Origin: Ignavibacteriota bacterium
GTDB taxonomy: Bacteria > Bacteroidota > Ignavibacteria > UBA10030 > CAVZMI01
Assembly: GCA_963776275.1 (NCBI GenBank)
Contig: CAVZMI010000006.1
Span: forward strand, 1-64,000
Reading direction: 5' to 3'
DNA: 64,000 bases
The position numbers and the translations under genes are program-made. Shown one piece after another: positions 61,976 to 64,000 of this stretch. The notes under the pieces were generated by a model, which worked only from the letters and a program-made list of their open reading frames with translations, did not search any database and had not been told where the DNA came from. Numbering within the stretch: the first letter of the stretch is position 1; each line of letters starts with the position of its first letter.

Positions 61976-62312
61976 ATGGGAAAAAATCTAAAATTAGATA
62001 TACCACTGAACCTCGAAAACTTCACGACCGACGACTACCATGAGCTCTGGAATCATCTCGGTCCGATTGAAATCCGTATGATCGAAAAATGCGGAAAATG
62101 TAAACACGCTTTAGATGATGTATTTGTCTATCAGCATCCGTACGATAAACCGGCCGGAGTGTGTAACGCATTGCTCCACGTGCTCGATCTGTATACATGG
62201 AGAGTTGCGCTCGGATTTCCGTCATGGGAATCCGATAACAGAAAGCTGCCATCGCATCCACTGCCCGGCTAAAAAAGGAACAATCTGGGAAATGAAGAAA
62301 TTGGAGAGATAG
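61976..62312 (+). CDS. TIGR04076-like small Cys-containing protein; apparent frameshift ~62245
   Basis: AGGAG RBS; GKCKH..D.F..P.GVC..L..GFPSW..(R)IHCP..GTIWEMKK. Confidence 0.6.
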
Positions 62313-62340
62313 AGATTACGATGCCAATATGAAATTTAAA

Positions 62341-62460
62341 CTCTGTGTCCTCTGTGCTCGATAGAATTATAGATATCCTCTGTGGACTCCGTGGTTATAT
62401 TTTATCATTGATAAAAAGAAAAACACGGAGATCACAAAGGATCCACGGAGGACACAGAGT
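62341..62460. repeat. CTCTGTG../..CACAGAG palindromic repeat
   Basis: CTCTGTGTCCTCTGTG (62341) and CCTCTGTGGACTCCGTG pair with CACGGAG..CCACGGAGGACACAGAG. Confidence 0.7.
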
Positions 62461-62544
62461 ATATATTCCTTATGTTTTTTCAAAGAAAACGATTAGTAAT
62501 GGAACAGATTCTATATTATTATTGTTTTTAATAATAATAAGGAT

Positions 62545-62573
62545 TTGCAAAATTGAATTCTTTATTGTATATT
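62545..62573 (+). promoter_or_regulatory. Sigma70-type promoter of the leader-cysE-cysK unit
   Basis: TTGCAA-N17-TATATT; only 5 nt separate it from the sORF ATG at 62579. Confidence 0.65.
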
Positions 62574-62578
62574 TTATT

Positions 62579-62674
62579 ATGGTAATTTACAATCATAGTA
62601 TCTCTGCTCTTTCAATCGGATCTTTTCCGATATCCAATTCGTGTATCTTCTGCACCTGTAGCTGCTGTTGTTGA
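62579..62674 (+). CDS. Polycysteine leader peptide (31 aa), probably leaderless
   Basis: MVIYNHSISALSIGSFPISNSCIFCTCSCCC*; 6 Cys in the last 10 codons; 90 nt upstream of cysE. Confidence 0.75.
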   Translation: MVIYNHSISALSIGSFPISNSCIFCTCSCCC

Positions 62675-62704
62675 TCATGTAATCAACACAGCCCTTTTCT
62701 TTTT
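62664..62704 (+). terminator. Attenuator terminator overlapping the Cys codons and stop of the leader
   Basis: GCTGT(T)GTTGAT-CATGTA-ATCAACACAGC (11 bp, one bulge) followed by CCTTTTCTTTTT. Confidence 0.65.
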
Positions 62705-62764
62705 ACACTCTAATAGATTTTCACTATAGTTTATTCATATAAATTATTCTTAGGAATCAACGTC

Positions 62765-63574
62765 ATGGTCAACCATCATTTTCTCGAGACACTCGATGCC
62801 AATAATGGCAAGTTTTCAATTTACCTTCCTTCCAAACCGAAGGCCCAGCAATTCGTCGATCAACTGATTCATTTTCTTTTCCCGATTACTGCCGGAGTGA
62901 GTTTATCTATCCAGCAGCTTGAATTACGACTGATGCATCTCCGACTGGAATATGAAGAATTACTCGAACCCCTCGCCTGCTATTTCAAACATCCGCTGAC
63001 AGAGCTCACGGATAGTTATTTCAACAATCTGCCCGTCGCTTATGAACTCCTGTTGAAAGATGCGAAGGCAATCGAAGAATTCGATCCGGCTGCCTACTCA
63101 ATCGAAGAGATCATCATTTCATATCCCGGATTCTATGCCATCGCCGTACACAGATTGGCGCATCATATGTACACGCTGGAGATCCCCATTCTCCCACGCG
63201 TGATCTCGGAATATGCCCACAGCCTAACGGGTATCGACATCCATCCGGGAGCAAGAATTGGCGAGTCGTTTTTTATCGATCACGGAACAGGCATCGTCAT
63301 CGGTGAAACGACAGATATTGGGGCCAATGTGAAGATGTACCAGGGTGTGACGCTGGGGGCACTCAGCGTGAAGAAATTGCTTGCTAATAAGAAACGTCAT
63401 CCCACAATCGAGGATAATGTTATTATTTATTCTGGAAGCACAATCCTCGGAGGCGACACGGTCATCGGGCATGATTCGATCATCGGCGGGAACGTATGGC
63501 TCACGGAAAGCGTTGAACCATATACAGTTGTTTACAACAAGCATGAAGTCAGCGTACGAAATACAAAAGGTTGA
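62765..63574 (+). CDS. cysE: Serine O-acetyltransferase
   Basis: DPAA..EEII.SYPG..A...[39 protein letters not shown]. Confidence 0.95.
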
Positions 63575-63618: not shown

Positions 63619-64000
63619 ATGAAAGCGAACAATATACTGGAAATCATAGGCCGGACACCTCACGTGAAGATCAACAGGCTTTTCCCTGCCGGTGTCGAAG
63701 TATGGATGAAACTTGAGCGGGCCAATCCCGGGGGAAGCATCAAAGACCGCATAGGTTTGTCGCTAATCGAGGATGCAGAGAAGAAGGGCTATCTGAATAA
63801 AGACAGCGTGATCATCGAGCCGACTTCCGGAAATACCGGTATCGGTCTGGCCATGGTCGCAGCCGTCAAGGGCTATAAAATAATTCTCGTGATGCCCGAG
63901 TCGATGTCGGTTGAACGTCGCAAGTTGATGTCTCTTTATGGAGCTAAATTTGAGCTCACTCCGCGCGAAAAAGGAATGAAAGGAGCCATCGAGCGGGCAT
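63619..64000 (+). CDS. cysK: Cysteine synthase A (partial, runs off the window)
   Basis: [51 protein letters not shown]. Not in the ORF track. Confidence 0.96.

Follow-up and report, generated by a model that had tools for sequence, protein, structure and literature searches.

In the classical enterobacterial attenuators of the trp, his, leu, thr and ilv operons, a run of codons for the end product precedes an intrinsic terminator, and the position of the ribosome on the leader decides whether that terminator forms. Four RNA segments take part, and a separate antiterminator helix (2:3) competes with the terminator (3:4). At pyrBI and pyrE of Escherichia coli the translating ribosome blocks the terminator hairpin without any antiterminator, the signal being the pausing of RNA polymerase in dependence on uridine triphosphate (UTP). 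For cysteine, experimental proof of leader-peptide control is to our knowledge confined to mycobacteria, where it acts on translation. Here we describe an element near the end of a 64,000-nucleotide stretch of DNA from an uncultured peat bacterium of the Ignavibacteriota (contig CAVZMI010000006.1, positions 1 to 64,000; hereafter the window), in which a short open reading frame (sORF) ending in a cluster of cysteine codons, together with a hairpin built in part from those codons, precedes the genes cysE and cysK (Table 1). The element is a real, conserved and unannotated regulator, and the sORF is very probably a cysteine sensor. As to how it works, we favour, as probable though less assured, a ribosome-mediated transcription attenuator of cysE-cysK that senses cysteine with one single hairpin.

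By mechanism, the classical attenuators come closest to this locus. As in those systems, a short leader frame with a cluster of end-product codons stands upstream of the biosynthesis genes, in this case with at least two consecutive Cys codons (the CCC run of codons 29 to 31) heading the cysteine operon cysE-cysK, and a terminator-like hairpin lies before the first gene. The difference is that the control codons sit inside the 5' arm of the putative terminator itself and that no antiterminator is evident, although relatives in another family of the same class (f17, below) look classical. With pyrBI and pyrE the locus would share a terminator that the ribosome blocks without an antiterminator; the stalling proposed here depends on an amino acid, whereas there the signal is UTP.

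By its sensor, the locus is closest to the polycysteine leaderless sORFs of mycobacteria, described with Ms5788A and a 'Cys ribulon' by Canestrari et al. (bioRxiv 10.1101/834739), who leave open transcriptional control at other loci. Both have a short frame at the extreme 5' end of the transcript (here predicted), without a Shine-Dalgarno (SD) sequence, with consecutive Cys codons and upstream of cysteine or sulfur genes, and the proposal for both is that ribosomes stalled on these codons keep an RNA duplex from forming and so lift repression. The mycobacterial duplex, however, hides the SD of the next gene, which makes control translational, whereas the hairpin of the window, with its U tract 60 nucleotides (nt) away from the SD, looks transcriptional; and several loci respond in each mycobacterial genome, whereas one was found in the genome of the window. 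We treat the likeness as an analogy between short elements of different phyla that have no sequence relation. A further candidate, uORFC-8-2 upstream of cysS in Rhodobacterales, is a predicted ribosome-mediated attenuator that senses the charging of Cys-tRNA (Brewer et al., RNA Biol 2021, PMC8632094). It likewise has Cys codons inside a stem and a terminator with a U run, but these are two tandem codons, at 14-15, in the first of two stems, and the controlled gene is cysS in alphaproteobacteria. The candidate Cys leader frames of actinobacteria (Seliverstov et al., BMC Microbiol 2005, PMC1262725) also have Cys codon runs near the stop, upstream of cys operons or cbs; no conserved terminator hairpins were reported for them and Rho was suggested, whereas the hairpin and U tract of the window overlap the stop codon. 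Full-text searches, which leave most subscription journals outside their coverage, found no literature on such a leader in Ignavibacteria or Bacteroidetes, in agreement with the original prediction for this DNA, which knew of none in the lineage. Compared with known Cys leaders, what stands out in these sequences is the fused sensor-terminator design, and the joining of the same sensor to several outputs within one class.

A cysteine run inside a hairpin arm

Direct reading of the sequence bore out all the parts from which the original prediction had assembled its attenuator, with their positions: the promoter-like pair, an ATG at 62579 without SD, six Cys among the last ten codons, the hairpin, the U tract, cysE and cysK. 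Just 5 nt (TTATT) separate the end of the TATATT -10 box from the ATG, and no AGGA- or GGAG-type motif was found upstream of this start; cysE, by contrast, is preceded by AGGAA. The Cys codons of the sORF are numbers 22, 25, 27, 29, 30 and 31. The hairpin (GCUGU-U-GUUGAU, loop CAUGUA, AUCAAC-ACAGC) has 11 pairs and one bulge, and its 5' arm begins at the second base of Cys codon 29, runs through the next two Cys codons and the UGA stop and ends with one further U. Folded in isolation it reaches -11.6 kcal/mol (z-score -3.57, with 1 of 200 shuffled sequences folding equally well), and the fold of the whole 197-nt leader has a z-score of -4.18. The dinucleotide CC stands between the end of the hairpin (62692) and the U tract UUUUCUUUUU, and the ATG of cysE follows 60 nt past that tract. 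Such a concentration of cysteine is singular in this genome: among the 176,634 stop-to-stop frames with 10 or more codons, counted in six frames over 3.7 Mb, this sORF is the one frame with six Cys in its last ten residues, and four frames have five. No second Cys leader was found upstream of a recognisable sulfur gene in the same genome, the genes that follow being judged by eye.

We hypothesise that these parts work together as follows. Transcription would begin with the ATG or no more than a few bases away from it, and the 31-codon leader would be translated without an SD. The last three Cys codons and UGA form, by sequence and fold, the 5' arm of a hairpin; with the U tract behind it, this hairpin would act as an intrinsic terminator. 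When Cys-tRNA(Cys) is scarce, a ribosome would stall once codon 27, 29, 30 or 31, each a Cys codon, has entered its A site; the arm would then lie within the footprint, the hairpin could not form and RNA polymerase would continue into cysE-cysK. When cysteine is ample, the ribosome would finish and depart, the hairpin would form and most transcripts would end at about 62700-62704. We assume that termination in this replete state needs the release of the ribosome before the polymerase clears the U tract, a pause, or a loose coupling between polymerase and ribosome.

The geometry of the stall was calculated with the rule of thumb that the footprint of a ribosome ends 12 nt past the base that opens its A-site codon. 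Of the 11 terminator pairs, 6 remain when the stall is at Cys27 and none (0/11) when it is at Cys29, 30 or 31, so that the masking of the arm originally proposed holds for the end of the run. It does not hold for its beginning, given that stalls at Cys22 or Cys25 leave the terminator whole (11/11 pairs), nor is it peculiar to stalled ribosomes, as a ribosome at the stop codon also leaves 0/11. For this reason, termination in replete cells hinges on fast release or on uncoupling, and this is the weakest link of the model. The claim that no separate antiterminator takes part agrees with the leader folds, in which no helix competing with either arm of the hairpin was seen.

Variation within the family

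A Cys-rich sORF stands upstream of cysE in 3/3 genomes of the family (f1): that of the window (G000), a genome of the same genus with a 99% identical CysE (G001) and a genome of another genus with a 75% identical CysE (G002). A CysE-based locus search with N-terminal peptide patterns gave three genome loci and one metagenome locus, the latter identical to that of G001. The leader of G001, MIIFDHTTLISSIGFSPISNSCILCTCSCCC followed by a stop, has the start position, frame and 31-codon length of that in G000; a promoter-like pair, TTGGAA-17-TATATT, lies 5 nt before its ATG, and its U tract, UAUUCUUUUU, shows one change. The leader of G002 has 22 codons (MNNRRTIYYPAHLTCICTCCCC, then a stop), ends in CICTCCCC and begins 8 nt after TTGACA-16-TAGATT, whose -10 box is preceded by TG and which is the sole promoter-like site on the plus strand upstream of that cysE. 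Its hairpin takes the four terminal Cys codons and the stop as 5' arm and has 14 pairs and a different loop (-15.8 kcal/mol, z-score -4.90).

The Cys run and the stop thus make up the 5' arm in 3/3 genomes while loops and stem lengths differ between genera, and the comparison that the original prediction called for speaks in its favour, with a hairpin built from Cys codons recurring in a second genus. In each genome the last 18 nt of the frame form a duplex with the 40 nt that follow, and this duplex is more stable than those of 300 shuffles, with z-scores of -3.0 (G000), -4.0 (G001) and -4.6 (G002). Because the leader peptides differ among the three genomes, the peptide appears to vary freely except for its Cys tail; what seems to be conserved in the family is that translation starts beside the promoter, that the frame ends in a Cys run and that the sequence downstream holds the complement of this run. 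The idea that serine, with seven residues in the leader, might be a second signal fails because the leader of G002 has none (7, 6 and 0 Ser in G000, G001 and G002).

Within the genus, G000 and G001 are 96-98% identical from 62612 on (60/63, 29/30, 59/60 and 781/810 positions), and upstream of about 62611 they agree at 20/33 nt over codons 1-11, at 25/34 over the promoter and at 25/65 farther upstream. The boundary lies inside the sORF and is sharp, with less than 80% identity on one side and about 96-98% on the other. It is also visible as a loose contig end from three DNA runs, in a contig that represents a G001-like strain and adds no new variants; a search for sequencing runs that contain the locus listed no run of RNA. 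The pattern suggests a recombination breakpoint; promoter spacing, start codon and frame length are maintained across it.

These comparisons also bear on the possibility that the sORF encodes a functional Cys-rich micropeptide with a terminator of its own, and that cysE-cysK are driven, free of any control by the sORF, from a promoter-like site at 62702-62730. A hairpin and U tract would suit the end of an independent small gene, and a site with 10/12 matches does lie between hairpin and cysE in both G000 and G001. We nevertheless hold this to be improbable, since the peptide is unconserved beyond the Cys tail, ranges from 22 to 31 amino acids within the family and has no match to a Pfam family, since the site has no counterpart in G002, and since the link to cysE recurs, with unrelated peptide sequences, in six families of the class. 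The same lack of conservation in G002 led us to reject this site as the main promoter of cysE, and the site is probably due to chance.

Leaders and outputs across the class

For a wider view, we drew 401 genomes from the class, among them the unpublished genome G588, which counts in the denominators alone. CysE homologues (E <= 1e-40) occur in 90 of the 401, and these cysE loci together with four loci of the order gave 94 upstream regions. Regions extended up to 700 nt (up to 1000 nt for matches that set in far from the N terminus), and three were shortened by contig ends to 9, 223 and 416 nt. An sORF was counted as Cys-rich if it had a start codon, if its stop-to-stop length did not exceed 120 codons and if some stretch of 10 codons held at least four Cys. 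Such sORFs were present upstream of cysE on the sense strand in 31/94 regions and on the antisense strand in 1/94, which extends to the class what the original prediction expected of orthologous loci. The positive loci belong to f1 (3/3), f22 (15/26), f17 (7/20), f28 (3/6), f9 (2/8) and f30 (1/1); none was found upstream of cysE in f2 (3 loci), f7 (2), f8 (6), f10 (2), f13 (11), f16, f23, f32, f33 (2) and f36. In the phylum outside the class, the best-scoring 55 cysE loci, which are not a random sample, gave 4/55 on the sense strand and 0/55 on the antisense strand. These four leaders are L223 (G857), L203 (G893), L206 (G830) and L250 (G650), and the clearest of them reads MQQLRNHSFVPVSFTVKGFAALCCCCPLYCCCCMA before its stop. 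For annotation pipelines, the element is a concrete regulator of cysE.

With these counts, pure chance is effectively excluded. It would require that an AT-rich spacer happened to hold an open frame, a UGU-rich repeat and the complement of that repeat. UGU/ACA repeats do readily yield Cys codons and hairpins, and promoter-like hexamers are common in this spacer, but they leave unexplained a tail found in one frame of 176,634, its conservation across two genera and the excess of sense over antisense sORFs.

In 10/31 leaders an in-frame start lies 5-11 nt past the end of a sigma-70-like -10 box, against a mean of 1.3/31 at shifted control positions; these leaders come from f1 (3/3), f17 (6/7) and f9 (1/2). 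No promoter at that distance was found among the leaders of f22 or f28; these two families may rely on promoters of another type. Loosely defined SD-like motifs precede 1/30 sORF starts vs 20/31 cysE starts. The spacing of the -10 box and the missing SD together fit leaderless or nearly leaderless translation, with a 5' untranslated region of 0-3 nt, and the sORF of the window is, on this pattern, probably leaderless or nearly so.

The structures that follow the Cys run differ among families. In f17, f9 and f30 the run lies in the middle of the frame and is followed by 10-15 codons and then by a strong canonical terminator, one example from this set being AAGCCCUUCGUUG...CAGCGAAGGGCUUUUUUU (also written AAGCCCUUCG...CGAAGGGCUUUUUUU), at -21.3 kcal/mol. 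Strong terminators in this position make transcription attenuation by Cys leaders plausible in the class. A consensus fold computed for seven f17 leaders pairs the Cys codons with a segment farther downstream and, as we read the sequences, this segment (CGAAGG) could alternatively pair with the terminator 5' arm CCUUCG, which would constitute a classical multi-helix switch. Seven f17 loci (L142, L141, L140, L125, L144, L124 and L156) and two f9 loci (L163 and L172) look like classical Cys attenuators upstream of cysE, with TTGACA-17-TATCTT 8-9 nt before the ATG, a Cys run in mid-frame and a terminator of 13-15 base pairs with a U run; their peptides have a conserved tail such as RFSRG, which overlaps a CGCG...CGCGAAGG element. 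In f1, the family of the window, the run ends the frame and forms the hairpin arm, and a similar duplex with the Cys run is found in the f28 genome G608 (z-score -2.3). In f22 the run also ends the frame, 53-61 nt before cysE, and no terminator was seen there (15/26 loci with sORF). Read by eye, a UCC(N)...GGA pairing that includes the SD of cysE recurs in this family, at loci L069, L070, L079, L082, L151, L160, L166, L175 and others. Because a terminator is missing and the SD takes part in this pairing, the sequences suggest that the output of f22 is translational rather than transcriptional.

The f22 leaders are one of several points that weigh against transcription attenuation in the window. 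The promoter of the sORF matches at just 9/12 positions, promoter-like sites are frequent in the spacer (8 seen vs 5.0 +/- 2.1 in shuffles), and the site between hairpin and cysE in G000 and G001 scores better. The hairpin is modest in stability and the U tract of G002 (UUUCAUCAUUAUU) is weak; a simple terminator scanner flags the hairpin of neither genome, in G000 because the bulge splits the stem. The exact architecture is known from three genomes, of which two are nearly identical over the hairpin, and pairing between the Cys run and the sequence downstream is significant (p <= 0.05) in just 8/23 leaders with a terminal run, which gives no general rule.

The sORF could sense cysteine and still act otherwise, its stalled ribosomes altering the initiation of cysE translation, through sequestration of the SD, or the stability of the mRNA, with the hairpin serving structure or processing instead of termination. 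The one experimentally studied type of poly-Cys sORF does act on translation: it releases an SD that is otherwise sequestered (Canestrari et al., bioRxiv 10.1101/834739). The f22 loci and the weak U tract of G002 would fit as well. In the fold of G000 the SD region pairs weakly with GAUUUU at 62716-62721; this pairing, however, lies in an AT-rich spacer, counts two G-U among its 6 pairs and is not clearly kept in G002. Moreover, the hairpins of G000 and G001 are each followed by a U-rich tract, and the SD of cysE is not part of the hairpin of the window, unlike the arrangement in mycobacteria. We therefore regard translational or stability control in the window as rather unlikely, and prefer the single-hairpin transcription attenuator.

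Taken over the whole lineage, one leaderless poly-Cys sensor might be joined to at least three output structures before cysE: a multi-helix terminator switch in f17, f9 and f30, direct occlusion of a terminator in f1 and perhaps in some f28, and sequestration of the SD in f22. The window would then hold the minimal form, an attenuator of one hairpin without antiterminator, in which the sensing codons are the terminator arm. We put forward this combined reading tentatively, as possible rather than probable. If true, it would offer a natural series in which to follow the construction and remodelling of attenuators while the sensor stays the same, and the three outputs make attenuator evolution testable by comparison and with reporter constructs. 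For the principle of cysteine leaders itself, the locus suggests an extension to an uncultured peat bacterium and a simpler transcriptional design, one hairpin whose arm is the sensor.

Pattern scans gave few further leaders. The pattern TGYTGYTGYTRR-N4-14-CAACA, which also admits TGG as a stop, was run on 277 genomes of the order, and in the first 30 loci just the three family members were leader-like, L022, L023 and L040 lying in coding sequence. In the class, 176/401 genomes had a match; 70 loci viewed among the matches listed held seven real leaders, six before cysE and one 360 nt before cysH, and most others were coding. The leader before cysH (L074, in genome G596 of f22) is a poly-Cys sORF at about 1370-1527 that ends in TCPCCCMMCCC before its stop, and the gene 360 nt downstream (1888-2598) encodes a 3'-phosphoadenosine 5'-phosphosulfate (PAPS)/adenosine 5'-phosphosulfate (APS) reductase (NF002537, 292.6 bits). 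From this locus, some relatives may have more than one Cys leader. A frame ending in CKCPCCC or CKCRCCC before its stop was seen in five genomes of genus g118 (L100-L104), with no recognisable gene downstream; it probably belongs to a conserved coding region, read there in another frame.

Features of the locus and its surroundings

Table 1. The cysteine leader, its predicted parts and the genes downstream (window positions)
Feature	Position	Strand	Basis
Sigma-70-like promoter, TTGCAA (62545-62550), 17 nt, TATATT (62568-62573)	62545..62573	+	9/12 matches; predicted function
Leader sORF, 31 codons and UGA, MVIYNHSISALSIGSFPISNSCIFCTCSCCC	62579..62674	+	translation; no SD
Small hairpin inside the sORF, AUCGGA / UCUUU / UCCGAU	62615..62631	+	fold
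Candidate sensor, six Cys codons	62642..62671	+	sequence, frame count, masking geometry
Hairpin: 5' arm 62664-62675, loop 62676-62681, 3' arm 62682-62692	62664..62692	+	fold
U tract UUUUCUUUUU, putative termination point	62695..62704	+	sequence
Second promoter-like site, TTTACA, 17 nt, TATAGT, between hairpin and cysE	62702..62730	+	10/12 matches
SD-like AGGAA of cysE	62752..62756	+	sequence; kept in G001 and G002
cysE, serine O-acetyltransferase, 269 amino acids, putative first regulated gene	62765..63574	+	NCBIfam
cysK, cysteine synthase, runs past the window end	63619..64000	+	NCBIfam

CysE scores 156.1 bits with the NCBIfam model of serine O-acetyltransferase EpsC, whose cut-off is 150 bits; in CysK, the cysK/cysKM models cover the N-terminal 127 amino acids. 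The small hairpin inside the sORF has an identical stem and two loop changes in G001 and no clear counterpart in G002; it might, speculatively, be a pause signal for RNA polymerase. A scan of 62200-62900 against Rfam by E-value found no leader family over the sORF and hairpin, the hits being sub-threshold chance matches to microRNA, long non-coding RNA and small nucleolar RNA families. A longer reading of the same frame, with 109 codons from a GTG (62345-62674), was rejected as a real gene because in G001 an upstream stop limits the frame to 36 codons (stop to stop) and because it has no Pfam match.

At the very start of the sORF (62579-62596), the first five bases, AUGGU in G000 and AUGAU in G001, find a pairing partner at codons 5-6, AUCAU in both genomes, and the G-to-A difference keeps the pair. 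A hairpin at the 5' terminus would matter for leaderless initiation; this one is very weak and may be due to chance. Finally, a long nested inverted repeat, CTCTGTGTCCTCTGTG ... CACGGAGGACACAGAG, lies at 62340-62470, between the upstream gene and the promoter of the leader. A 16-mer of this repeat has 27 copies (with at most 2 mismatches) scattered over the genome, and a related element occupies the same place in G001; it looks like a family of repetitive extragenic palindromic (REP)-like repeats, and possibly serves as the terminator of the upstream gene.

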